Assembly: GCF_044324875.1 (NCBI RefSeq)
Contig: NZ_CP172185.1
Source of the DNA: Escherichia coli
GTDB taxonomy: Bacteria; Pseudomonadota; Gammaproteobacteria; Enterobacterales; Enterobacteriaceae
Reading direction: 5' to 3' (one strand)
Length of the DNA stretch: 64,000 bases
Each line of letters opens with the position of its first letter. Positions within the stretch are counted from its first letter, which is position 1. Shown in pieces: positions 1,930 through 54,373 of this stretch. Under the pieces are notes generated by a model. That model was not told the origin of the DNA, searched no databases, and saw only the letters and a list, made by a program, of their open reading frames with translations. The position numbers and the translations under genes are program-made.

Positions 1930-2050
1930 TGCAAAATGGCATCTGAATCGATCGCAGTTTGGCATTCGAATCGATCATGATTTGGCATCCATCTCCGATC
2001 ACAGTTTGGCATCACAATCGATCACGATTTGGCATGCTTCCGATCATTGA
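1930..2050 (+). repeat. IS21-family left-end multiple terminal repeats
   Basis: Five tandem copies of a ~20-bp unit (TTTGGCAT..CGATCG..GAT variants) between 1930 and 2050; typical IstA binding sites of IS21-family ends. Confidence 0.6.
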
Positions 2051-2131
2051 TTGGCATCCTGCCAGTCACTCCGGGAATTAACTCTTTTCACCACAGTCTC
2101 CATTGCCGTGTTTAAACCAGTGGAGACGTCA

Positions 2132-3697
2132 ATGTCCAGAAAGAGAAAATCCAGGAGCACTATGGAAACCTGTTTTAAGATCCTTCAGCTCAAGTTCGAC
2201 AAGAAGCTGACTAACCGTTGTATCGGACTGACGTTACACATCAGCGCCTCAACCGTTTTTGAGGTTCTTGCCCGCTTCAAAGCCTCTTCTCTGTCATGGC
2301 CATTACCTGCTGATATATCCCATGACACGCTGGAGAAACTCATTTTTCCGCCCAAAGACACCTTTGCATCAGAGCTTGTAATGCCTGACATGTTGTACTT
2401 CGATACGGAAATGAGAAAACCAGGTGTGACGCGGCAACTGTTGTGGATGGAATACAAGGCACAGGCGGGTAACAAAGCGATGGGATACTCGCACTTCTGC
2501 CGTTGCTACCGGGAGTGGAAAAAAACGCGACGTCTCTCCATGCGCCAGGAGCATCGTGCCGGCGAAAAGCTTTTTATCGACTTCTGTGGTCCTACGGTTC
2601 CTGTTATTAATCCGGACACCGGTGAGATACGCCGCGTGGCAATCTTCGTGGCCGTAATGGGGGCGTCCAACTATACCTACGTTGAAGCGTGCGAAGGTCA
2701 GGACATGATGTCATGGTTAAATGCCCACAGCCGTTGCCTGACCTTCCTGGGCGGCGTACCGAAGCTGCTCATCCCCGATAACCTCAGAAGCGCAGTGAAA
2801 AAGGCCGATCGATATGAGCCTGTCATCAACGACAGTTATCAGGCACTGGCTGAGCACTATGGCACGGTTATCATCCCGGCCCGACCACGCAAACCTAAAG
2901 ATAAACCAAAAGCAGAAAACGGCGTCCTCATCGTTGAACGATGGCTTCTTGCCCGCATCCGTAATGAAACCTTCCACACGCTCAGGGCGCTGAATGCGCG
3001 CCTTAGGGAGTTACTGACAGACATGAATAACCGGCCAATGAAGGGGTACGGCAATCAAACCCGTGCAGAACGCTTCCGCATACTGGATGCGCCAGCACTC
3101 TCTCCGCTGCCTCTGGCACCTTATGAATACACGGAATACAAAGCTGTGAAGGTTGGCCCTGACTACCACGTTGAATATGCCCGTCACTGGTACTCCGTTC
3201 CACACGAACTGGTCGGTCAGCGTCTGTCACTGAAGGCGGGGCAGTCGGTGGTACAGCTCTGGCACAAGGGGCAGTGTGTGGCGCAACATCCGCGCAGCAC
3301 ACATGAATATAAACACACAACCAATCCGCTTCACATGCCAGAGCGCCACCGGCAGCACGGGACATGGACACCGGAACGCCTGATCGAGCAGGGAAAACGT
3401 ACGGGCCCGTCCACAGGCCGGGTGGTTGAATCCATGCTGAAGGCAAAACCCCATCCGGAACTGGCTTATCGTGCAGTTCTGGGGCTGCTGGCACTTCAGA
3501 AAAAATACGGCCCGGAACGGCTGGAAAAGGCCTGTTACGTTGCCCTGCACTATAACGCCCCTGACAGACGCTTTATCGACAATCTGCTGCGTCACCATCG
3601 GGAGAACCTGGAGCTTCCATTATCCCGCCAGGGCGAACAACATCCGGCATATGCTTCAGAGCATGAAAACCTGCGTGGTCCGGGCTACTACCACTGA
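2132..3697 (+). CDS. istA: IS21-family transposase IstA
   Basis: ORF track 2051..3697; long ORF begins inside the terminal repeats, so the GGAGACG-preceded ATG at 2132 is the more likely start; N-terminal HTH then DDE-type catalytic region; followed by istB. Confidence 0.85.
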   Translation: MSRKRKSRSTMETCFKILQLKFDKKLTNRCIGLTLHISASTVFEVLARFKASSLSWPLPADISHDTLEKLIFPPKDTFASELVMPDMLYFDTEMRKPGVTRQLLWMEYKAQAGNKAMGYSHFCRCYREWKKTRRLSMRQEHRAGEKLFIDFCGPTVPVINPDTGEIRRVAIFVAVMGASNYTYVEACEGQDMMSWLNAHSRCLTFLGGVPKLLIPDNLRSAVKKADRYEPVINDSYQALAEHYGTVIIPARPRKPKDKPKAENGVLIVERWLLARIRNETFHTLRALNARLRELLTDMNNRPMKGYGNQTRAERFRILDAPALSPLPLAPYEYTEYKAVKVGPDYHVEYARHWYSVPHELVGQRLSLKAGQSVVQLWHKGQCVAQHPRSTHEYKHTTNPLHMPERHRQHGTWTPERLIEQGKRTGPSTGRVVESMLKAKPHPELAYRAVLGLLALQKKYGPERLEKACYVALHYNAPDRRFIDNLLRHHRENLELPLSRQGEQHPAYASEHENLRGPGYYH

Positions 3698-3713
3698 CAG
3701 AAGGAACAACAGT

Positions 3714-4469
3714 ATGAGTGATAACCTGTTAAACAAACTGACCCAACTGAAACTCCCGGCGATGGCCGGGAGCCTGATACGGCAGCGGGAAACGCCTCAG
3801 ACCTACGACGAACTGTCGTTCGAGGAAAGGCTGACGCTGCTGGTTGATGACGAGCTTCTGAGCAGGGAAAACAGCCGTGTGGCACGGTTGAGAAAAAATG
3901 CCGGCCTGAAATACCAGGCAACACCGGAAGGGCTGCGCTATCCGGCCTCAAGAGGTCTGCGGGCTGAACAGATGAGAGAACTGCTGAACGGCCACTACAT
4001 AACCCACAGGAAAAACCTGCTGATAACCGGTCCGACAGGATGTGGCAAGAGCTGGATAGCCAATGCGCTGGGCGAACAGGCATGTCGACAGAAACACAGC
4101 GTCCGGTACTGTAGAACCGGGCGATTACTGGAACAACTGGCTCAGGGACGTGTTGATGGCAGCTGGCTGAAATATCTGAAACAGTTGCAAAAAATACAGG
4201 TTCTAATCCTGGACGATCTGGGGCTGGAACAGTTAAGTAACGCCCAGTGTAATGACCTTCTGGAGCTCATAGAGGATCGTTACGGACAAAGCAGCACGAT
4301 AGTGGTAAGCCAGTTCCCGGTAGATAAATGGCATGGTCTGATGGAGAACCCAACAACAGCAGATGCCATCCTGGACAGACTGGTACATAACTCACACCGA
4401 GTGGTCCTTCAGGGAGAGTCACTGAGGAAAAATCCCCCGGTAGTGGAAAGCAGCGAAAAAACGCGTTAA
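3714..4469 (+). CDS. istB: IS21-family helper ATPase IstB
   Basis: Walker A GPTGCGKS, Walker B LILDDLG; start at ATG 3714 (MSDNLLNKL) with SD AAGGAA, not the longer in-frame track ORF 3471..4469. Confidence 0.9.
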   Translation: MSDNLLNKLTQLKLPAMAGSLIRQRETPQTYDELSFEERLTLLVDDELLSRENSRVARLRKNAGLKYQATPEGLRYPASRGLRAEQMRELLNGHYITHRKNLLITGPTGCGKSWIANALGEQACRQKHSVRYCRTGRLLEQLAQGRVDGSWLKYLKQLQKIQVLILDDLGLEQLSNAQCNDLLELIEDRYGQSSTIVVSQFPVDKWHGLMENPTTADAILDRLVHNSHRVVLQGESLRKNPPVVESSEKTR

Positions 4470-4759
4470 AAAGCGGTAGAAAAAGTTAAGTTCCCGGTTG
4501 ATCGAATGGATGCGAATCGCTGATCGGACTTCGATGCCAATCCGTGATCGAATAGAGCGGAATACGCAGGGAACCACACAGGGTATGGACAAACATAATA
4601 ACAATAACAGGATGAAAATATTGAATAAAAAATAAAAACCGAGACATCATCATTTGCAGTAATAGCCACCTCCTTACCGAAAAGTGTGAGTTGCCGGACA
4701 TTTTTTAAACGCATGATAAGGTCTGATGATACAGTCACCCTGCAACCAGGAGGTACATC

Positions 4760-29857: not shown

Positions 29858-32237
<2,380 letters not shown>

Positions 32238-32242
32238 GCAAA

Positions 32243-32707
32243 CACATCAATGATGAACGCCACATAGACGACCCCCTCCCATGTGCTGACGTAAGTAAAA
32301 TCAGCCACCCACAACTGGTCAGGACGTTCTGCCACAAACTGACGGTTTACGCGGTCGCCTGCGGCAACGGCTTTCCGGCTGACGGTAGTGCGGACCTTTT
32401 TACCCCGGAGAACACCGGCAAGTCCCATAACCGCCATGAGGCGCGCCACTGTACATCTGGCTACCCTGATTCCTTCCCGTAACAACTGACGCCAGACTTT
32501 ACGCACACCGTATACCTGATGATTCCCATCGTATACGCGCAGTATCTCTTTCTTCAGCCAGTCATCGCGCTGCGCACGGGCACTGCGTTTATAAGGATGA
32601 TGTCGCTGTTGCTGACAGTGGTAATACGTTGACGGGGCAATATGTAGTTCACTGCATACCGGTCCGACCCCGTACAGCTTACGCAGCTTATCCAGCAGTG
32701 GCATCAC
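32243..32707 (-). pseudogene. IS629 orfB, N-terminal part
   Basis: Identical to OrfB residues 1-154 of copy 2, then runs into the IS100 end. Confidence 0.8.
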
Positions 32708-33030
32708 TTTTTCCAGAGGCGGTCGAACTCCGCCTTCGCAAAATAAGCGGAAGCCTGGCGAAGGATATCGTTACTGCGGCGCAGTTCACGATTTTCACGT
32801 TCCAGCTCTTTCAGACGCTGACGTTCAGCGGTGGTGAGCCCGCCATCACCGCCTCCGGTATCCCGCTCATGCTGGCGTACCCAGACACGCAGAGTCTCCG
32901 GTGTACAGCCAATCTTTGGGGCAATGGAACAAATTGCCGCCCACTGTGAGTCATATTCGCCCTGACTTTCCAGAACCATACGAATCGCCCTCTGACGGAC
33001 TTCGGGGGAAAAACGAGTATTTTTAGTCAT
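32704..33030 (-). CDS. IS629 OrfA
   Basis: 108 aa, identical to copy 2 OrfA (38056..38382). Confidence 0.85.
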
Positions 33031-33083
33031 TCTGTTTACCTCTTTCTCAGGGAGTTTAGTCTCCAGGATTCCCGGGGCGGTTC

Positions 33084-33448
33084 ACGGGAGCCAGGACCTT
33101 AAAATAACTACTTACAGGCTGTTGTATTCCAGCTGGTAATACGATTTCTGCACTGTCAACAAACGGAATGCCGTCTTTAAAGTCTGCCCTGTCATTAGCC
33201 TCATTGAGAATGAAATCGACTAGAACAGGCTCTTCGTTCACCAGTCCTTGATGGTTAAGAAATTTGACGTAAAGTTTAAGTGTATTGCTGACGGGATAAA
33301 TTTTTCCAAGAGCATTGGTAACAACATGGGCTGCGGTGAGAATCTTTTGCTGCTGACCATTATCGAAACCAAACGCAGTTGCTTCGAGATGGCTACTAAA
33401 ATGAGGATCATTGCTTACATAGATTTTACAAACGTAGTTTTCAAACAT
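33084..33448 (-). pseudogene. S1 (trypsin-like) protease-like gene, 3-prime end cut by IS629
   Basis: N-terminal 120 aa with catalytic-His motif ILTAAHVV; reading frame continues into the IS629 inverted repeat. Confidence 0.4.
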
Positions 33449-44096: not shown

Positions 44097-44677
44097 TAGC
44101 GGATAACCGCTGAAACGATATCGGAGTGCATATCGTCAATTGTGCGGCCGCGACAGGCATGGCCATGGGCGGTAAAGTCCCAGTTGCCGTTATTACGGCG
44201 CAGCGAAGAAATAACGATCCCGGTATGTGAGCCCTGCTCAGTCAGCTTGTAGCGAGCCAGCTCTTTGCCGGTTTGATCGACAACGCGGCAGAACGCGTTT
44301 TCGACGTCATTGAACGACTGACCACGGAAGCTGTTTACCGTAAACGCCAGGTATTCAACGTTTGCAGGCAGTCGGGAGAGGTTGACCTTAATCACTTCAT
44401 CGTCACCGTCACCCTCACCGGTCAGGTTATCGCCACTGTGCACAACAGCGCCGCAGGTGGATTCCAGTTTGCGGAACCAGATGGTGTCAATTGTTTTACC
44501 GGTGCTGTCCATTAATACGCAGCCAGCATCGAGATCGATTGAGTCGTTGCCTCCAAACAATCCTCCAAGAAGACCTTTTTTCTTAACCGGATCCCAACCG
44601 AGACCGAAATGAAGCTGGCTTAATGCAGATGATTCTTTGCTGAGTGATACCGTCTGGTTCTTAACTAATGAAACCAT
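44096..44677 (-). CDS. terZ: tellurium resistance protein TerZ
   Basis: 193 aa TerD-family protein, first gene of the operon, divergent from the biosynthetic module. Confidence 0.85.
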   Translation of the reverse strand: MVSLVKNQTVSLSKESSALSQLHFGLGWDPVKKKGLLGGLFGGNDSIDLDAGCVLMDSTGKTIDTIWFRKLESTCGAVVHSGDNLTGEGDGDDEVIKVNLSRLPANVEYLAFTVNSFRGQSFNDVENAFCRVVDQTGKELARYKLTEQGSHTGIVISSLRRNNGNWDFTAHGHACRGRTIDDMHSDIVSAVIR

Positions 44678-44998
44678 GTTTTATTCCTTAAAATGGTAAT
44701 GACCGAGACAATCAAAGGTATATTTAGTAACTGACGAAGAAAATCATATCATGATGAAGTTCTCTGACAAGGGAAATTTTGGTAGTTTTCTGTAAAAACA
44801 CAAAAATAAATCCTTTTCAGGGTGTTAATTTTCTATTTTTAATTTAAATATCAATATTTTATCACGAATCCAAAAAACACTGGCGCACTCCATAACCACG
44901 GAAGTTATTAATCATATTATGATTGACATGCAGCTTAGACACTCATAGACTCACTTCTCAATCATAAATTTGCATGGCGTTCCGGATAATTAAAAAAA

Positions 44999-46057
44999 AT
45001 GAACAAGAAAATTTGGTTTATGGAAGGTTTATCCTCCCAGCGAGATATTATTCATGGGGTAAAATCATTTGCACAAAAAAATAATTTTGCCATTACCGTT
45101 TTTGCCTCCCACCGTAACGAAAGAAATGAAATCCTTTCCGTTGCCGATTATTCTTTGACTGAACCTGAAGATCCTCAAAAACGTCTTCAGTTTATCCAGG
45201 AAACCATTCAGACCTACGGTATCCACCATATTCATACTGGCCGTAACAGCCAGTGGTTTGAAGAACACCGTTCAGCCATTGAATCGACCGGTGCCACCCT
45301 TACTACCGGTGCAACGGGCGTCGACTGGTTAACTCTGGCTGACGAAAAAGTTACTTTTGCTCAGTTTATGGAGCAAAAGGGTCTCCCGGTCGTACCATCC
45401 TGGCGGGTGAATACGCTGGCAGAATTAAAGACACACCTCGCGGCCCCGCCGTTCACTGACAGCCCGGTATGCGTGAAGCCGGTGACGGGTATCTATGGCA
45501 TGGGATTCTGGCGCTTTGATGACAGTGCTTCGCCTATGGCCGTCTTTAATCATCCCGAACATCGTCTGGTCAGTCCGCAACAGTATATTGCAGCAGCATC
45601 TGCTGCTGAGTCGTTTAAACCCCTTGTTTTGATGCCGTACCTGCCAGGCCCGGAATTTTCCGTCGATATCCTCGCGGATAAGGGCGAAATACTCGCAGCC
45701 GTGGGACGCCGTAAGGAAGGGGCTATCCAGTATCTGGTAAACGAAGGAAGCGCCTGGGAACTGGCGTGTGACTGCGCCCGTGTTATGAAGGCCGACGGGC
45801 TGGTGAATGTTCAGACGCGAAACGATGTGAATGGCAACCCGGTGCTGCTTGAAACCAACATGCGTCCGTCAGGGGGGGTGGGTTATACCCTTCACAGCGG
45901 GGTGAACCTTCCTGGGTTATTTGCTGCCTTTAAGCTCGGTCTGATGTCTGAAGATATGGTACGCCAGAGCGCTAAAAACACCTTTTCTCCGGTTGCGGTG
46001 AGATCCATTACGGATGTAATTGCATACCCGGAATCACTCTCTAACCTTCTGAGTTAA
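44999..46057 (+). CDS. ATP-grasp domain protein of ter-associated biosynthetic module
   Basis: 352 aa; gene order ATP-grasp/PRTase/HAD/StiP/HpcH next to ter genes matches the described ter-linked module; assignment from context and overall architecture, not from motifs I could verify. Confidence 0.6.
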   Translation: MNKKIWFMEGLSSQRDIIHGVKSFAQKNNFAITVFASHRNERNEILSVADYSLTEPEDPQKRLQFIQETIQTYGIHHIHTGRNSQWFEEHRSAIESTGATLTTGATGVDWLTLADEKVTFAQFMEQKGLPVVPSWRVNTLAELKTHLAAPPFTDSPVCVKPVTGIYGMGFWRFDDSASPMAVFNHPEHRLVSPQQYIAAASAAESFKPLVLMPYLPGPEFSVDILADKGEILAAVGRRKEGAIQYLVNEGSAWELACDCARVMKADGLVNVQTRNDVNGNPVLLETNMRPSGGVGYTLHSGVNLPGLFAAFKLGLMSEDMVRQSAKNTFSPVAVRSITDVIAYPESLSNLLS

Positions 46058-46066
46058 GGCGTATTT

Positions 46067-47209
46067 ATGTCTGATATCCTCGAAGATATGATTTATCGCC
46101 GTACCCTCTCATGCGGTACGATTCAGGTAACCCGTGACCAGGGTGAAGTTTCGCTCGATGACCTGTTTGACATCGCTGAAAGACGTAACCCGAAACGCGC
46201 CTTTCTGTTTGTCAGCAAAGTACTCGGCAGGCACATTCCCGTGCCACCCTCAGTCATGCGGCAGGCCTACAGACAGCTTGCCAGCCAGTTCCCCTCGACA
46301 CTGACAGGACCCGTACTGTTTATCGGTATGGCTGAAACCGCCGTTGGGCTTGGGGCCGGTGTATTTGATGAAGTGCGCCACCAGCATCGTGAATCTGTCT
46401 ATCTGACCTCTACCCGTCACCCGGTTGATGGCACGTTGCTTTGCGAGTTCAAGGAAGAACACAGCCACGCCACCGATCATCTGATCTATCTGCCAGATGA
46501 TGAAGAGAAAAGACGTCGTGTTACCAACGCACGAACGCTGGTTTTGATTGATGACGAGGCAACCACCGGTAATACCTTTATTAACCTGCTTTCTGCCCTG
46601 CGTAATACCGGCAAGCTTCAACATATTGAACAGGTTATCGCCGTAACGCTGACCGACTGGAGTGGCAATGCCCTGTCGGAGCGCACCCCCTTGCCAGTCA
46701 CTTCGGTTTCGCTTGTAAGCGGTCAGTGGGGATGGACCCCATTACCTGATGCACATGTCCCGGACATGCCTAAAGTCAACGTAACTTCACGAGGAGAATG
46801 GGACATCCAGGGAAAACAGTCCTGGGGCCGACTGGGGATGCTCGCACCTGCGGCCGATCTCGGCCATGAGGTCTCCGTCCACAAGGGGGAACGTATTCTG
46901 GTTCTCGGGACCGGGGAATTCGTCTGGGAGCCGTTCCTGCTTGCTGAACGGCTCGAAGCTGCCGGAGCACAGGCATTTTATGGATCGACCACCCGCTCCC
47001 CTATCGCCGTTGGTTATGCCATTGAGTCCGCCATTTCCTTTACGGATAACTACGGGCTGGGCATCCCCAATTTTGTCTATAACGTCGCCCACCAGCAGTT
47101 TGACCGCATTCTTGTGTGTACTGAGACACCCGCAGAAAGTATTGACACGCAGCTTCTTAAAGCGCTGGCTGAGGTTGCGCCCGTCGTGGAGATTGTTACC
47201 TATGAATAA
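46067..47209 (+). CDS. phosphoribosyltransferase-domain protein
   Basis: 380 aa; PRPP-binding loop VLIDDEATTGNT. Confidence 0.7.
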   Translation: MSDILEDMIYRRTLSCGTIQVTRDQGEVSLDDLFDIAERRNPKRAFLFVSKVLGRHIPVPPSVMRQAYRQLASQFPSTLTGPVLFIGMAETAVGLGAGVFDEVRHQHRESVYLTSTRHPVDGTLLCEFKEEHSHATDHLIYLPDDEEKRRRVTNARTLVLIDDEATTGNTFINLLSALRNTGKLQHIEQVIAVTLTDWSGNALSERTPLPVTSVSLVSGQWGWTPLPDAHVPDMPKVNVTSRGEWDIQGKQSWGRLGMLAPAADLGHEVSVHKGERILVLGTGEFVWEPFLLAERLEAAGAQAFYGSTTRSPIAVGYAIESAISFTDNYGLGIPNFVYNVAHQQFDRILVCTETPAESIDTQLLKALAEVAPVVEIVTYE

Positions 47210-47975
47210 ACCCGTTGTTCTGAGCGACCTTGACGACACGCTCTTTCAGACCCGTCGTAAAATGGTGGACGAGCTGGCCCTGGAGCCATTCCGTACCGGT
47301 GCCGTTGATCGCACCCTGAATCCACGAAGCTTTATGACGGAAGAACAGTCCATGTTGGTGGACTGGCTCCTGGAGCAGGCTGAACTCATACCCGTTACCG
47401 CACGGGGTACTGAAGAAATCAGCCGCGTACGGATCCCTTTCCACTCCTGGGCAATCACAACGCACGGGGCCGTCATTCTCACGCCTGAAGGCAAACCCGA
47501 CGAGGAGTGGAAGGCCCATATGCTCGGCCAGCTGGCTCCCTACCAGGAAAAGCTGACATCGATGCAGCGTCTGATCACTGAAATGATGGACGCAAAAGGG
47601 CTCAATGCCTGGGCAAGGCTGAACTTCGAATACGGTGAAACGGCGGTTTATATGGTGATGAAACACCGCGACAGCACCCGCCTTGACGAGCTCAATGCCA
47701 TTGCAGATGAGATAGAAACGGTGTTTCCGACCGAGGGCTTCTACATCCACCGCAACAGTAATAACGTGGCCTGGCTTCCCACCCCGGTTGAGAAAGGGCT
47801 GGCAGTCAGCTGGCTGCTTGAAAAACTTCGGGCTGAACGAGGAGTTTTCCCCGTAATTGGTTTGGGCGACAGCCTGAGCGATCATCGTTTTATGAAACTG
47901 TGCAGCTGGTTTGGCATCCCGCGTCAGAGTCAGTTTGCAGATGCCATTTCACAGCGAATTTTTGGAGAAAATTAA
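47202..47975 (+). CDS. HAD-family hydrolase
   Basis: Track ORF 46866..47975; start at ATG 47202 (MNKPVVLSDLDDTLF) gives the HAD motif-I DxDxT at the N-terminus. Confidence 0.75.
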   Translation: MNKPVVLSDLDDTLFQTRRKMVDELALEPFRTGAVDRTLNPRSFMTEEQSMLVDWLLEQAELIPVTARGTEEISRVRIPFHSWAITTHGAVILTPEGKPDEEWKAHMLGQLAPYQEKLTSMQRLITEMMDAKGLNAWARLNFEYGETAVYMVMKHRDSTRLDELNAIADEIETVFPTEGFYIHRNSNNVAWLPTPVEKGLAVSWLLEKLRAERGVFPVIGLGDSLSDHRFMKLCSWFGIPRQSQFADAISQRIFGEN

Positions 47976-47976
47976 A

Positions 47977-49056
47977 ATGCAGCCACATGAAACATTTACC
48001 GGCTCATACCAGCCCGGTGACGTGGAATTTCTGCTAAAGCCGGTTGTCATTGAGATGACGCCGGTTGAGAAAAAAGAAGAACTGATTCAGTCCGGGAAGA
48101 AACATTATTCGGACATGCTCAGCCAGGAGCCAGCGCCTACACAATGGCATCTTGATTTGTTTCACCGGGCGCTGGATCGGGGCGCAGAGAGGCTTGCAAA
48201 AGAAGTCACACAGCTCGCTATTGCTCTGGCCGAACGCTTCGGTGATGAGCCCATTGTACTGGCCAGTCTTGTCAGGGCTGGCGTTCCGCTCGGCGTTATG
48301 CTGCACCAGGCCCTGCGTGACATGGGGAAAACCTCATGGCATTACGGTATCAGCATTATCCGAGATCGTGGAATTGACGGTGCAGCCCTCGACGTCATTG
48401 AAGAGCGCCATGGTACCAGCGGTATTGTCTTTGTTGACGGATGGACAGGTAAAGGCGCAATTACCGGAGAGCTTGTACGCGCACTGAAAGATCGCCCGGG
48501 CTATCCTGAGCAGCCGCGACTGGTTGTCCTGGCCGATCCCTGTGGCTGCTCCTGGCTTGCAGCCAGTGATGATGACTGGCTCATTCCTTTTGGCATCATG
48601 GGTGCGCCGGTATCAGGCCTGATCTCCCGGTCAGTATGGTCCTCTGAAGGATTACATGGGTGCATGGTTTGCGAGCATCTCAGTGAATTCGAATGCAGCC
48701 GGATGCTTGTCGATACCGTCGCCCATTTCCGTAAGAAATTAACCCCGTCATCCCTCGCTACCCTGAGCTGGAATATGGAGTCAGCCCGGGTCTTATGGCA
48801 GACAAGTCGCGACGTTATCGCGTTCCTAGCCGATGAATTTAAAGTGGACAGCGTCAATCGTATTAAACCCGGTATTGCTGAAGCAACCCGGGCTGTATTA
48901 CGTCGGGTACCGGACCATGTATTTGTGCGTTCTATTGACGACCCGGACGTTGCCTTGCTTGTAGGGCTTGCTCGTGAAAAGGGAATAGTTGTTACAGAAA
49001 TGGGGGGAACCCTCGGCCAGTATCGGGCTGTAACCATTATCAAGAAGGTACTCTGA
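47977..49056 (+). CDS. StiP-like cysteine protease family protein
   Basis: Track ORF 47911..49056; ATG at 47977 (MQPHETF); family call from position in the ter module, not from a verified motif. Confidence 0.5.
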   Translation: MQPHETFTGSYQPGDVEFLLKPVVIEMTPVEKKEELIQSGKKHYSDMLSQEPAPTQWHLDLFHRALDRGAERLAKEVTQLAIALAERFGDEPIVLASLVRAGVPLGVMLHQALRDMGKTSWHYGISIIRDRGIDGAALDVIEERHGTSGIVFVDGWTGKGAITGELVRALKDRPGYPEQPRLVVLADPCGCSWLAASDDDWLIPFGIMGAPVSGLISRSVWSSEGLHGCMVCEHLSEFECSRMLVDTVAHFRKKLTPSSLATLSWNMESARVLWQTSRDVIAFLADEFKVDSVNRIKPGIAEATRAVLRRVPDHVFVRSIDDPDVALLVGLAREKGIVVTEMGGTLGQYRAVTIIKKVL

Positions 49057-50012
49057 TGAAAAATCGTCTTTCTCCCTGGAATCTGGGAGCCACGCTATAC
49101 ATGCCTGCAACACGGGAAGATATTGCTGATGCCGTCCTGCACGGGAAAATCCCGGGTTTGCGCTCTCTGGTGATTTGCCTGGAGGATGCTGTCAGTGAAG
49201 CAGACATCCCCGTCGCCCTCAAAAATCTGGAGCACCTGCTGCACGAGCTCAGTAACAGCATGCGTAGCCTGGGTAAAAATGACTGGCCTCTGGTGTTCAT
49301 TCGCCCCCGGCATGCCGAAATGGGCAGATGGTTAAAAGCGCATTATGATCTTTCCGCTGTCGACGGGTTTGTGTTGCCGAAATTTACCCTGAGTTCGTTA
49401 GCTGAATGGTGGGATATCATGGGCGGGACTCACCTGTGCATGATGCCAACGCTGGAAACAGAAGACGTCTTTGACGTGGTTCAGATGCGCGAGCTGGCCA
49501 CCCATCTGGTGGAACATCCCTGCCACGACCGCATTATTGCGCTTCGAATCGGCGGCAACGATCTAATGAACGTTGTGTCGCTTCGCCGTCCCCGCGACCT
49601 GACGCTGTATGACAGCCCGATGGGCTACGTCATCAAAATGCTCGTTTCGGTCTTCGGCCCGCGTGATTTTGCCCTGACCGCGCCCGTATGTGAGCATATT
49701 GACGATCATGCCGTTATGGCCAGAGAGCTGGCTCTTGATATGGCACATGGGCTTGTTGGGAAAACGGCCATTCACCCGGGTCAGATAGAGGTCATTCAAA
49801 ACGCGCTGATGGTCACTCAGGGTGAGCATTCTGACGCTCTGCGGATCCTGAACTCTACCCAGGCCGTGTTTAAGTCTCAGGGAGCGATGTGTGAACCCGC
49901 CACACATCGCCGCTGGGCGGCTGGCATTCTGGACAGAGCTCGTTTTTATGGGTTACAGAACGAGCAAAGCGCTGATGGAATCAGATTACTTACCGTGACC
50001 CAGCATCATTAA
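49056..50012 (+). CDS. HpcH/HpaI aldolase / citrate-lyase beta-like protein
   Basis: 318 aa TIM-barrel-like; start overlaps preceding stop. Confidence 0.6.
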   Translation: MKNRLSPWNLGATLYMPATREDIADAVLHGKIPGLRSLVICLEDAVSEADIPVALKNLEHLLHELSNSMRSLGKNDWPLVFIRPRHAEMGRWLKAHYDLSAVDGFVLPKFTLSSLAEWWDIMGGTHLCMMPTLETEDVFDVVQMRELATHLVEHPCHDRIIALRIGGNDLMNVVSLRRPRDLTLYDSPMGYVIKMLVSVFGPRDFALTAPVCEHIDDHAVMARELALDMAHGLVGKTAIHPGQIEVIQNALMVTQGEHSDALRILNSTQAVFKSQGAMCEPATHRRWAAGILDRARFYGLQNEQSADGIRLLTVTQHH

Positions 50013-50022
50013 GGAAATCATA

Positions 50023-51231
50023 ATGGGGTTCAGGTTCAGAAAGTCGATCAACATTATTCCTGGCGTTCGCCTCAACCTGAGTAACGGTGCACCGAGCCTG
50101 AGTGTCGGGCCGAGAGGTGCTTCCGTTTCTTTTGGAAGCCGGGGGACCTATGCCAATCTGGGCTTGCCCGGTACCGGGCTGAGTTACCGTACCCGGCTTG
50201 ACCGGGCCGCGCGTTCCGGAGGTGGGAACCGGACGGCAACCGACCCGGGGCTCAGACAGGCGCTTGAGCAGGAAGCCGCTGAACTCATGTCAGCGGTGAC
50301 CGCAATCCGTAATATTCACGAGCTCACGCCGGATCCAAAAACAGGCATCAGCTGGGCAGAGCTGGAGGCAGTATACCTGCATAACAGAACGTCGCCTTTT
50401 CAGGTTCCGGCACCGGTACGTCCAGAAAAGCCAGACTACCTTGCATTGCCGGAAAAGCCTGCCGAGAGCGAAGGCATTAGTTTTCTGGGTAAATGGTTTG
50501 AATCGGAATCAGCTAAAGCTGAGCGCCACGCCGAAAATCTTCGCCGGTGGCAGCAGGAGCTGATTGATGTGGAGCGTGAGAATACCCTTCGACAGCACCG
50601 GTACCAGCAACAACGGACGGCCTGGGCCGAACAGTATGCAAACTGGAAGTTTGAAGCTGAAGAACATGAAAAACGGCTCGCCACGGCTCAGGCAGATGCC
50701 CGGCAGCAGTTCCGGACAGACGCCGCGTTTTTCGAATCATACCTGGCGGGTGTGCTGGCAGAAACTGAATGGCCGCGTGAAACGCTTGTTGCATTTGAAG
50801 TAAAGCCGGAGCTATCAGCAGTCCTGCTGGACGTTGATTTAGCTGAGATTGAAGATTTCCCTGATAAGATTTACGGCGTTAATGCCCGGGGCACGGAGCT
50901 GACGGAAAAAGCCATGACGCAAAAAGCCGTACGCGAAAACTATGCCCGCCACGTTCATGGCTGCTTGTTCCGCCTGGTCGGTATCGTTTTACATACGCTA
51001 CCTTTCGACAACGTGATTGTGTCAGGCTTTACGCAACGGGTCAGTAAGCGGACCGGCTATCTGGAGGATGAGTATATCCTGTCCTGCAAATGCACTCGCA
51101 GCCAGATGTCGTCAGTAAATTTTGCAGGCATAGAACACATTGATCCGGTTGAAGCGTTAGGCGATCACCCGGTTATTCGAAAGATGAGCAGTACCTTCAT
51201 TTTTCAGCCTATTGAACCACTAACCCTTTAA
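50023..51231 (+). CDS. DUF4236-like N-terminal domain protein (402 aa)
   Basis: N-terminus MGFRFRKSINIIPGVRLNLSNGAPSLSVGPRG... matches the Gly-rich DUF4236 pattern; central Glu/Arg/Gln-rich probable coiled coil. Confidence 0.5.
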   Translation: MGFRFRKSINIIPGVRLNLSNGAPSLSVGPRGASVSFGSRGTYANLGLPGTGLSYRTRLDRAARSGGGNRTATDPGLRQALEQEAAELMSAVTAIRNIHELTPDPKTGISWAELEAVYLHNRTSPFQVPAPVRPEKPDYLALPEKPAESEGISFLGKWFESESAKAERHAENLRRWQQELIDVERENTLRQHRYQQQRTAWAEQYANWKFEAEEHEKRLATAQADARQQFRTDAAFFESYLAGVLAETEWPRETLVAFEVKPELSAVLLDVDLAEIEDFPDKIYGVNARGTELTEKAMTQKAVRENYARHVHGCLFRLVGIVLHTLPFDNVIVSGFTQRVSKRTGYLEDEYILSCKCTRSQMSSVNFAGIEHIDPVEALGDHPVIRKMSSTFIFQPIEPLTL

Positions 51232-51248: not shown

Positions 51249-51716
51249 ATGCAATTAAATACCAGACAGGCCCGGATTTTTAAGCTTGCCAACTTACTGG
51301 GCACCGGCAAGCCCGTTTCCGCTGCCGACATTATAACCAGTCTGGAATGCTCAGAGCCGACATTAACCCGGGCCCTCAAAGAGCTACGCGAGTCATATTC
51401 TGCGGAGATCAAATACAGCAAGGCAGGTCATTCCTACCATCTCGTTAATCCGGGCCAGCTGGATAAAAAGACCCTTCGCCGGATGAATGAAGCGCTCGCA
51501 CAGAATGCTGAACTGAAAACCGGTGAGTCCACAGGGAAGGTCGTACTCGATAAGGATAAAAAAACAGCCGTGTCATTATCGCTACGCATGCGGATTTTAA
51601 GAAAAATTGACCGTCTGGCTGCGCTGAGTGGCTCGACCCGAAGTGAAGCGGTAGAGAAGCTGGCTCTGCACTCCGTTGATGAACTGATAAAAGAATACAG
51701 CGCTAAAAAGTCCTGA
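51249..51716 (+). CDS. terW: TerW-like DNA-binding regulator
   Basis: 155 aa, size and position as for TerW of ter islands; N-terminal helix-turn-helix-like segment. Confidence 0.65.
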   Translation: MQLNTRQARIFKLANLLGTGKPVSAADIITSLECSEPTLTRALKELRESYSAEIKYSKAGHSYHLVNPGQLDKKTLRRMNEALAQNAELKTGESTGKVVLDKDKKTAVSLSLRMRILRKIDRLAALSGSTRSEAVEKLALHSVDELIKEYSAKKS

Positions 51717-51730
51717 CGCTAAATCTCAGA

Positions 51731-51753
51731 CCGGGGTGAAAACCCCGGTTTTG
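51731..51753 (+). terminator. rho-independent terminator after terW
   Basis: CCGGGGT-GAAAA-CCCCGG followed by TTTTGT, 15 nt after the terW stop. Confidence 0.55.
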
Positions 51754-53006: not shown

Positions 53007-53601
53007 CCCGTTGTAAAGTGAGGATATGGACACCTCACTTGCTCATGAGAACGCCCGCCTGCGGGCACTGTTGCAGACGCAACAGGACACCATCCGCCAG
53101 ATGGCTGAATACAACCGCCTGCTCTCACAGCGGGTGGCGGCTTATGCTTCCGAAATCAACCGGCTGAAGGCGCTGGTTGCGAAACTGCAACGTATGCAGT
53201 TCGGTAAAAGCTCAGAAAAACTTCGTGCAAAAACCGAACGGCAGATACAGGAAGCACAGGAGCGAATCAGCGCACTTCAGGAAGAAATGGCGGAAACGCT
53301 GGGTGAGCAATATGACCCGGTACTGCCATCCGCCCTGCGCCAGTCTTCAGCCCGTAAACCGTTACCGGCCTCACTTCCCCGTGAAACCCGGGTTATCCGG
53401 CCGGAAGAGGAATGCTGTCCTGCCTGTGGTGGTGAACTCAGTTCTCTGGGATGTGATGTGTCAGAGCAACTGGAGCTTATCAGCAGCGCCTTTAAGGTTA
53501 TCTGCGTATTCCGCTCTATTCGATCACGGATTGGCATCGAAGTCCGATCAGCGATTCGCATCCATTCGATCAACCGGGAACTTAACTTTTTCTACCGCTT
53601 T

Positions 53602-54357
53602 TTAACGCGTTTTTTCGCTGCTTTCCACTACCGGGGGATTTTTCCTCAGTGACTCTCCCTGAAGGACCACTCGGTGTGAGTTATGTACCAGTCTGTCCAG
53701 GATGGCATCTGCTGTTGTTGGGTTCTCCATCAGACCATGCCATTTATCTACCGGGAACTGGCTTACCACTATCGTGCTGCTTTGTCCGTAACGATCCTCT
53801 ATGAGCTCCAGAAGGTCATTACACTGGGCGTTACTTAACTGTTCCAGCCCCAGATCGTCCAGGATTAGAACCTGTATTTTTTGCAACTGTTTCAGATATT
53901 TCAGCCAGCTGCCATCAACACGTCCCTGAGCCAGTTGTTCCAGTAATCGCCCGGTTCTACAGTACCGGACGCTGTGTTTCTGTCGACATGCCTGTTCGCC
54001 CAGCGCATTGGCTATCCAGCTCTTGCCACATCCTGTCGGACCGGTTATCAGCAGGTTTTTCCTGTGGGTTATGTAGTGGCCGTTCAGCAGTTCTCTCATC
54101 TGTTCAGCCCGCAGACCTCTTGAGGCCGGATAGCGCAGCCCTTCCGGTGTTGCCTGGTATTTCAGGCCGGCATTTTTTCTCAACCGTGCCACACGGCTGT
54201 TTTCCCTGCTCAGAAGCTCGTCATCAACCAGCAGCGTCAGCCTTTCCTCGAACGACAGTTCGTCGTAGGTCTGAGGCGTTTCCCGCTGCCGTATCAGGCT
54301 CCCGGCCATCGCCGGGAGTTTCAGTTGGGTCAGTTTGTTTAACAGGTTATCACTCAT
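53602..54357 (-). CDS. istB: IS21-family IstB
   Basis: Identical to 3714..4469. Confidence 0.9.
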   Translation of the reverse strand: MSDNLLNKLTQLKLPAMAGSLIRQRETPQTYDELSFEERLTLLVDDELLSRENSRVARLRKNAGLKYQATPEGLRYPASRGLRAEQMRELLNGHYITHRKNLLITGPTGCGKSWIANALGEQACRQKHSVRYCRTGRLLEQLAQGRVDGSWLKYLKQLQKIQVLILDDLGLEQLSNAQCNDLLELIEDRYGQSSTIVVSQFPVDKWHGLMENPTTADAILDRLVHNSHRVVLQGESLRKNPPVVESSEKTR

Positions 54358-54373
54358 ACTGTTGTTCCTTCTG

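Follow-up and report, generated by a model that had tools for sequence, protein, structure and literature searches.

Two putative TerW operators at predicted back-to-back promoters in the divergent control region of an Escherichia coli ter island

Introduction

How a single short stretch of AT-rich DNA might govern two gene sets that are transcribed away from each other is the question raised by the spacer between terZ, the first gene of the ter operon, and the ATP-grasp gene that leads a biosynthetic module on the opposite strand. We have examined this spacer in a chromosomal ter island of Escherichia coli carried on contig NZ_CP172185.1, using a stretch of 64,000 nucleotides (64 kb) that is called the window throughout. 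An earlier note on the same DNA made several claims about the spacer, and these are taken up where our results bear on them.

A substantial part of the answer is already available from published work on related islands. Valkovicova et al. 2011 (Biologia) reported experimental evidence that TerW binds the ter promoter region, as cited in PMC7843439, PMC9448990 and PMC12054061. Control of ter transcription by terW in E. coli has been described by Kravchenko et al. 2021 (PMC7843439), and that paper places a palindrome within the TerW-protected region. Its supplementary file lists two putative TerW operators of plasmid R478, named terZ1_R478 and terZ2_R478. As regards the direction of control, the lethality of terZA is countered by terW (Whelan 1997, as summarised in PMC4633105), and in Pectobacterium high terW expression coincides with low expression of both terZABCDE and the ATP-grasp operon (PMC7843439). 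PMC9448990 paraphrases the 2011 study differently, with TerW ‘inducing overexpression’ of ter genes. Other regulators have also been connected with these genes. PhoP is reported to control both operons in Pectobacterium and to repress the ATP-grasp operon (PMC7843439), and OxyR control of ter genes has been reported in Proteus and Yersinia, while in Klebsiella the authors of PMC8115787 found no OxyR site.

Results

The spacer and its flanking genes

The earlier note described a 320-bp AT-rich spacer separating a terZABCDEF operon from a divergent ATP-grasp-led module. The gap, its base composition and the divergent orientation all hold, with a length of 321 bp between the terZ start codon and the ATP-grasp ATG (Table 1). 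The name of the operon needs correction because terF is only a remnant, and the left operon therefore comprises terZABCDE plus a truncated terF. The GC fraction of the spacer is 0.305 versus a mean of 0.509 for the window, and only 1.5% of 321-bp segments are equally AT-rich. Pfam matches, open reading frame layout and annotation agree that the spacer is flanked by a TerD-domain gene and a divergent ATPgrasp_Ter gene. In sequence comparisons, a few E. coli chromosomes matched the region at 99.9% identity and over 1200 plasmids, most of them of IncHI2 type, at 96–98.7%.

The module genes are tightly packed, with every intergenic gap or overlap measuring 17 bp or less. Its HAD-like open reading frame has no assignment in Pfam and is called a HAD hydrolase by the annotation of a near-identical record. 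The statement in the earlier note that a TerW-like regulator is encoded at the end of the module proved accurate, since terW is the last of seven module genes and its product is 100% identical to an NCBI-named TerW and 99–100% identical to proteins so named. The terW gene begins after a gap of 17 bp, the 550 bp upstream contain no promoter-like site, and a terminator-like hairpin follows the gene directly.

Table 1. Coordinates of genes, predicted promoter elements and putative operators at the terZ/ATP-grasp control region
Feature	Position	Strand	Evidence
Divergent AT-rich intergenic control region	44678..44998	.	GC content; orthologous spacer length of 308–330 bp in 59/70 divergent loci
terZ, first gene of terZABCDE(F')	44096..44677	-	Pfam TerD domain, E 5.9e-46; TerZ/TerD-family in matching records
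terZ Shine-Dalgarno AAGGAA	44684..44689	-	Read from sequence; columns 75–90% or more conserved in 49-sequence alignment
Box A core ATCATATCATGAT, putative TerW operator	44743..44755 (extended 44737-44761)	.	Exact pattern; 64–71 nt upstream of terZ ATG in 59 loci
Predicted terZ extended -10 TGATATGAT, inside box A	44743..44751	-	Scan 10/12 matches with TG; nearly invariant across loci
Predicted terZ -35 TTGTCA, 16-bp spacer	44765..44770	-	TTG 75–90% or more conserved in 59 loci
A-tract (AAAA in terZ sense), 6–10 bp upstream of -35	44777..44780	-	Conserved block
Spacer centre	44791..44904	.	No conserved columns; length kept; AT-rich; family-wide 10.5–11 bp AA/TT periodicity
Box B core ATCATATTATGAT, putative TerW operator	44911..44923 (extended 44905-44929)	.	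Exact pattern match; present in 59 loci
Predicted module -35 TTGACA, first T common with box B	44923..44928	+	At least 90% conserved
Predicted module -10 TAGACT, 17-bp spacer	44946..44951	+	T1, A2, A4 and T6 at least 75% conserved in ungapped register from box B
ATPgrasp_Ter gene, first gene of module	44999..46057	+	Pfam PF15632, E 8e-38
Remaining module: PRTase_2/TRSP, HAD-like, StiP/PELOTA, C-C lyase, DUF4236	46067..51231	+	Tightly packed
terW, regulator, last module gene	51249..51716	+	Named TerW; winged helix plus RHH-like tail; 17 bp after preceding gene
Terminator-like GC-rich hairpin with T-run, 3' of terW	51728..51751	+	Sequence

Several other readings of the spacer were examined and set aside. 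Structured RNAs, riboswitches and small RNAs were rejected on the basis of a chance-level match and of unremarkable folding of the leaders: an Rfam scan of the spacer with permissive filters returned only AgvB (E 0.58, 19 bits versus a gathering score of 56), and the two predicted leaders fold no better than shuffled sequences (z +0.85 and +1.57). Small proteins were rejected as well, given that the six open reading frames of 20–36 aa overlapping the spacer fall in unconserved sequence. Finally, ATP-grasp variants of 381 aa do not owe their extra length to an N-terminal extension into the spacer, but to an internal duplication of 29 aa. There are four such E. coli Ter ATP-grasp variants of equal length (P0001–P0004). 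In P0001, the one in which the duplication was read, it is a tandem repeat of 29 residues within the ATP-grasp core (LPGPEFSVDILADKGEILAAVGRRKEGAI).

The island as a whole is eroded on both sides. The terF remnant retains about 129 N-terminal codons (39309-39698, minus strand), is cut by IS elements and lies near IS3/IS110 remnants, and terY and terX, which normally follow terW, have been replaced by an IS66-family element (51982 onward). The chromosome of E. coli strain 135 (L001/L076) is colinear with positions 1-30283 of the window. Next to sapABCDF/ycjD, its island carries an integrase of the tyrosine type, iol genes for myo-inositol utilisation clustered with an ABC transporter, the remains of sitA and numerous fragments of IS elements. 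This sapABCDF/ycjD context differs from that of the tRNA-linked ter elements of PMC8193136. Two segments of about 2.6 kb each (1930-4568 and 53503-56141) have a common sequence in inverted orientation, are missing from strain 135, which is nearly identical elsewhere, and look like extra IS copies, the right one adjoining the IS66-family (ISCro1-like) element after terW. Positions 30284-39311 of the window are also unlike strain 135.

Conservation across loci and the prediction of two outward promoters

To compare the spacer among species, 15 ATP-grasp homologues were aligned to provide a query that fetched 74 loci from species-representative genomes, mostly of Enterobacterales with a few from other Gammaproteobacteria. 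The divergent terZ/ATP-grasp layout is kept in 70 of the 74, and in 59 of these 70 the spacer measures 308–330 bp even though the flanking proteins drop to 45–60% identity. An alignment of 49 spacers is conserved in only seven places, namely the terZ ribosome-binding site, box A, the terZ -35, the A-tract, box B, the TTGACA and the module -10. The central ~115 bp carry no sequence conservation.

A consensus scan of the spacer found two outward-facing sigma-70-like pairs, TTGTCA-16 bp-TGnTATGAT on the minus strand (44770-44743) and TTGACA-17 bp-TAGACT on the plus strand (44923-44951). Each site has 10 of 12 consensus matches, but the total of three sites against 2.3 ± 1.6 expected is not above chance. 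The promoter calls are instead based on the conservation of key bases in register across 49–59 spacers, and the conserved alignment blocks fall on the promoter-like sites that the scan had found. Judged by these conserved bases, the claim that the spacer holds both promoters appears to be correct. The predicted transcription start of terZ would lie near 44736 on the minus strand and that of the module near 44958 on the plus strand; the literature searched contained no start mapping for the ter locus. The A-tract upstream of the terZ -35 occupies the position of an UP element and may serve as one.

Two palindromes that correspond to published TerW sites

The pattern ATCATATNATGAT occurs exactly at only two places in the 64 kb, and both are in the spacer (44743-44755, box A; 44911-44923, box B), where they form part of the palindrome copies AATCATATCATGATGAA (44742-44758) and TTAATCATATTATGATT (44908-44924). 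When the spacer was shuffled with its composition kept, 0.15% of the shuffled sequences contained an exact ATCAT-N3-ATGAT, and none of 20,000 contained two. These are the published palindromic TerW boxes (core AATCATATNATGAT). Positions 44905-44929 are identical to terZ1_R478 (TTATTAATCATATTATGATTGACAT), and positions 44737-44761 differ from terZ2_R478 (AGCTTCATCATGATATGATTTTCTT) by one mismatch. The extended -10 of the predicted terZ promoter falls within box A, whose centre lies at about -13 from the predicted start. Box B abuts the module -35, with the last T of the box common to both, and is centred at about -41.

The comparative data tie these boxes both to the spacer and to the regulator gene. 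Among the 74 loci, exact ATCAT-N3-ATGAT sequences number 110 in 25 kb of spacers and five in the other 1.33 Mb, a difference in density of more than 1000-fold. The position of box B is mostly 84–91 nt upstream of the ATP-grasp ATG, with a full range of 78–99 nt in the 59 loci. Box A has a constant orientation (central ATC) because its G provides the TG of the extended -10, and the centre of box B is either ATT or AAT. An exact box is located upstream of the ATP-grasp gene in 58 of 62 loci that have a terW homologue within 10 kb (61 of 62 if one mismatch is allowed), versus 2 of the 10 loci without terW that have enough flanking sequence. Fisher's exact test gives p = 1.7e-6 for this association, a value uncorrected for kinship among loci that share ancestry.

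The ten loci without terW are informative individually. In one (L075), the ATP-grasp gene is broken and the boxes next to it are all degenerate; four (L056, L068, L070 and L071) have no box within two mismatches at the conserved positions; and three (L054, L055 and L063) have no exact box and a different gene arrangement. The boxes retained in the last two, with box A intact and box B degenerate in L004 and box A only in L008, look like decay on the basis of their sequences. The proposal that the spacer contains operators of the TerW-like regulator is thereby supported at the level of sequence, in that the two boxes match the putative R478 operators, are nearly exclusive to the spacer and co-occur with terW.

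Additional sites and other identities for the palindrome were considered. The best matches to the box within 300–400 bp of terW, including those near the downstream gene, are no better than background, and we therefore reject the published weak terY1 sites as a general feature, there being no box enrichment beside terW. This island lacks the weak third site that has been suggested to precede terY1, because terY/terX have been replaced by the IS66-family element. A Fur reading of the palindrome was likewise rejected, because it has only ~9 of 19 matches to the 19-bp Fur box by eye and because the boxes track terW. In several lineages a further box lies at a distance of exactly 35 bp from box A; these are Yersinia similis and Y. 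pestis (L052/L059), Pantoea/Mixta (L060, L066, L069 and L073) and Enterobacillus (L050). The Enterobacillus spacer is just 178 bp long, and this 35-bp pair constitutes its only boxes.

Predicted architecture of TerW

An AlphaFold2 model of the TerW monomer (mean pLDDT 88) has a winged helix at residues 5–67 (helices 5–17, 25–32 and 36–50; strands 53–57 and 62–67), followed by a long helix (73–92), a low-confidence segment and two C-terminal helices (110–127 and 131–154). In the model, an invariant VSLSL segment together with these last two helices resembles a ribbon-helix-helix (RHH) unit, whose strand would form only in a dimer. Profile matches point in the same direction while remaining below curated cut-offs, with RHH_1 matching 14 of 30 TerW homologues (best E 3.6e-5; 16.0 bits for this TerW versus a cut-off of 20.5), the HicB RHH tail matching 21 of 30, and HTH_11 or HVO_A0261_N matching 26–28 of 30. 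A fold search with TerW gave only weak matches to winged-helix regulators of the MarR/ArsR type, and a sequence search found no solved relatives.

These models are suggestive of an N-terminal winged helix fused to a C-terminal RHH-like unit, an arrangement that is apparently new. TerW would thus be like the CopG/MetJ/NikR repressors in its strand-helix-helix tail (VSLSL plus two helices) and like the MarR/ArsR repressors in its winged helix (5–67). Unlike in those proteins, both modules would be present in one protein of 155 aa, which is unusual, and the Pfam hits are sub-threshold. The single invariant cysteine, Cys34, is located at the start of the recognition helix and is a candidate redox or tellurite sensor.

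Discussion

Probable repression of both promoters by TerW

The spacer is the control region of the ter island with putative TerW sites as in R478. The earlier observation and its interpretation were right, and they describe something already known; the finding is not new because the palindromes had been published as TerW sites. What can be added is where these sites lie relative to the predicted promoters. We propose a bipartite control region in which two sigma-70 promoters stand back to back and answer to the TerW of their own locus, which would bind two palindromic operators of ~20 bp with the core ATCAT-N3-ATGAT. Box A lies over the terZ extended -10, so bound TerW would block RNA polymerase there, and box B abuts the TTGACA with one base in common, so TerW would occlude the module promoter as well. 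On balance, repression of both promoters seems likely to us, with TerW occluding the -10 of terZ and the -35 of the module.

The direction of control at both promoters, and the autoregulation discussed below, are what we infer from this map. Repression is the most likely direction given the centre of box A at about -13, the protection from terZA by terW and the expression data from Pectobacterium. Some points count against this conclusion or its exclusivity. The paraphrase in PMC9448990 would point to activation; the centre of box B at about -41 is also a classic activator position and argues against pure repression; and the reports on PhoP and OxyR argue against control by TerW only.

Given that terW is the last and tightly coupled gene of the module, TerW would limit its own synthesis through negative autoregulation. 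For this island, such autoregulation is consistent with the 17-bp gap, the promoterless 550 bp and the downstream hairpin. It should not be considered general because a gap of 240–400 bp precedes terW in Pectobacterium, Proteus and Yersinia, where the gene probably has its own promoter. Candidates for the inducing signal are the oxidation of the invariant Cys34 and a metabolite made by the module.

Does the DNA between the operators take part?

Beyond simple occlusion, the two operators and the intervening DNA could conceivably form one conserved three-dimensional device, in which A/T tracts are phase-locked to the boxes; we offer this idea only tentatively. According to this proposal, TerW molecules bound at boxes A and B would lie on the same face of the DNA and self-associate, and a loop of ~168 bp over curved AT-rich DNA would shut off both promoters cooperatively. 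Such looping is possible, although we would not wager on it. It would, with the same reservation, extend repression by occlusion rather than exclude it.

The distances between the boxes are the first argument in favour of a loop. Of the 59 typical spacers, 34 have a distance of 168–169 bp and 52 one of 165–171 bp, close to 16 turns of 10.5 bp. No distance falls at 160–164 bp, and the remaining seven measure 154–159 bp, most of them 157–159 bp. A class at 157–160 bp (~15 turns) recurs in at least four lineages, one of which is represented by a decaying, terW-less spacer at 160 bp that is not among the 59. The spacing in Yersinia (136 bp) corresponds to 12.95 turns, so that the spacing classes fall near 16, 15 and 13 turns. 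In contrast, the 255 bp of Affinibrenneria correspond to 24.3 turns, and the third box of some lineages is off phase at 3.3 turns (35 bp) from box A.

The second argument comes from the centre of the spacer, which keeps its length and not its sequence. In 28 dereplicated loci, the centre has a peak of AA/TT periodicity at 10.5–11 bp (z 6.7–8.1 versus dinucleotide-preserving shuffles, above all 300); 157 AT-rich control segments from these loci show no such peak. Measured from either box centre, moreover, the 10.5-bp component keeps a coherent phase (mean resultant 0.72 and 0.84, n = 27). In the window studied here, taken alone, the periodicity is not significant. The modelled TerW, with two potential oligomerising or DNA-binding modules, would be compatible with a looped complex.

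Taken together, spacing, periodicity and phase suggest a curved, phase-constrained architecture and possibly a repression loop. The combination of near-whole-turn box spacing with a phase-locked periodic centre is apparently new, and as a comparative pattern it is suggestive. The loci share ancestry, however, and descent, not selection, may account for the coherent phase as well as for the clustered spacings. The spacing could equally reflect the needs of two promoters and of nucleoid proteins, and binding of an H-NS-type protein to curved AT-rich DNA offers an alternative reading of the periodic centre.

Activation and global regulators as alternatives

It is also conceivable that TerW acts as an activator or in a dual role, recruiting RNA polymerase from box B to a weak module -10 and perhaps raising ter expression. 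The distance of ~41 bp between the centre of box B and the predicted module start is suitable for this role, and the module -10 (TAGACT) has only four of six consensus matches. Nevertheless, a protein bound to box A, on the terZ -10, can hardly activate, and the perfect TTGACA at the module -35 is unlike typical activator-dependent promoters. The guarding effect of terW against terZA toxicity, as summarised in PMC4633105, and the coincidence in Pectobacterium of high terW with both operons low (PMC7843439) also speak for repression. We therefore judge activation to be improbable.

Even less probable, in our estimation, is that the spacer is chiefly a target of global factors of the host, be it through silencing of the H-NS type or through PhoP or OxyR, with the palindromes being read by a host regulator and not by TerW. 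In favour of such factors are the GC content of 30% in this mobile island, the phased A/T tracts, a usual feature of curved DNA bound by H-NS, and the published links to PhoP in Pectobacterium (PMC7843439) and to OxyR in Proteus and Yersinia. Furthermore, the only exact PhoP-box consensus, (T/G)GTTTA-N5-(T/G)GTTTA, in the 64 kb lies close by on the plus strand (45015-45031, GGTTTATGGAAGGTTTA), ~57–73 nt downstream of the predicted module start. These bases encode codons 6–11 of the ATP-grasp protein (WFMEGL). Of 64 orthologous loci, 10 have the exact repeat (E. coli/IncHI2 type, Proteus and Cedecea), and the synonymous sites of these invariant codons vary in most other lineages; we consider the repeat probably a by-product of coding rather than a PhoP site. 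A pattern of four ATAG/CTAT elements at 10-bp spacing, admittedly crude, had no match with three or fewer mismatches anywhere in the window, and an OxyR-regulated promoter was rejected on this ground; the Klebsiella study (PMC8115787) had found none either. The boxes are also confined to the spacer, track terW and match the region that PMC7843439 reports as TerW-protected. Global factors may nonetheless act on top of TerW.

Relation to known control regions

The region is closest to those of R478, pTE53 (from E. coli KL53) and Pectobacterium versatile, with which it has in common the flanking genes and a terW gene in cis. The spacer is 96–98% identical to those of IncHI2 plasmids and contains both 25-bp palindromes of R478, one of them with a single mismatch. 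Unlike R478 and pTE53, the present island is chromosomal, lies beside sapF/ycjD, is riddled with IS elements and has a truncated terF.

There are also parallels to well-studied divergent regions. As in the tetR/tetA and merR regions, predicted promoters stand back to back in one spacer with palindromes over their core elements, and the regulator gene belongs to one of the units that it would control. The operators of those systems are adjacent, whereas here the putative operators are 168 bp apart and terW is 6 kb distant, in the last position of its operon; moreover, TerW belongs to neither the TetR nor the MerR family. The gal OE/OI, lac O1/O3, araO2/I1 and deo systems may resemble the present one in having two similar palindromes separated by near-integral helical turns with AT-rich, bendable DNA in between. 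For a possible loop at the ter spacer the evidence comes from the comparison of loci, and the pattern is broken in several lineages.

Implications for the ter island

The ter island is widespread, with carriers that include pathogenic E. coli, hypervirulent Klebsiella and resistance plasmids of the IncHI2 type. Relative to the published action of TerW, the gain from the current study consists of positional detail, broad comparative confirmation and a testable looping hypothesis. If that hypothesis is true, a loop would switch the Ter stress operon and the module for a nucleoside-like metabolite together, and the TerW loop would be the reason that the length of the spacer, but not its sequence, is conserved across Enterobacterales. 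The map of the switch, with putative operators on a predicted -10 and on a predicted -35 and with probable self-control by TerW, provides handles for finding the inducing signal. The same map should help to de-repress the biosynthetic module and thereby to identify its product.
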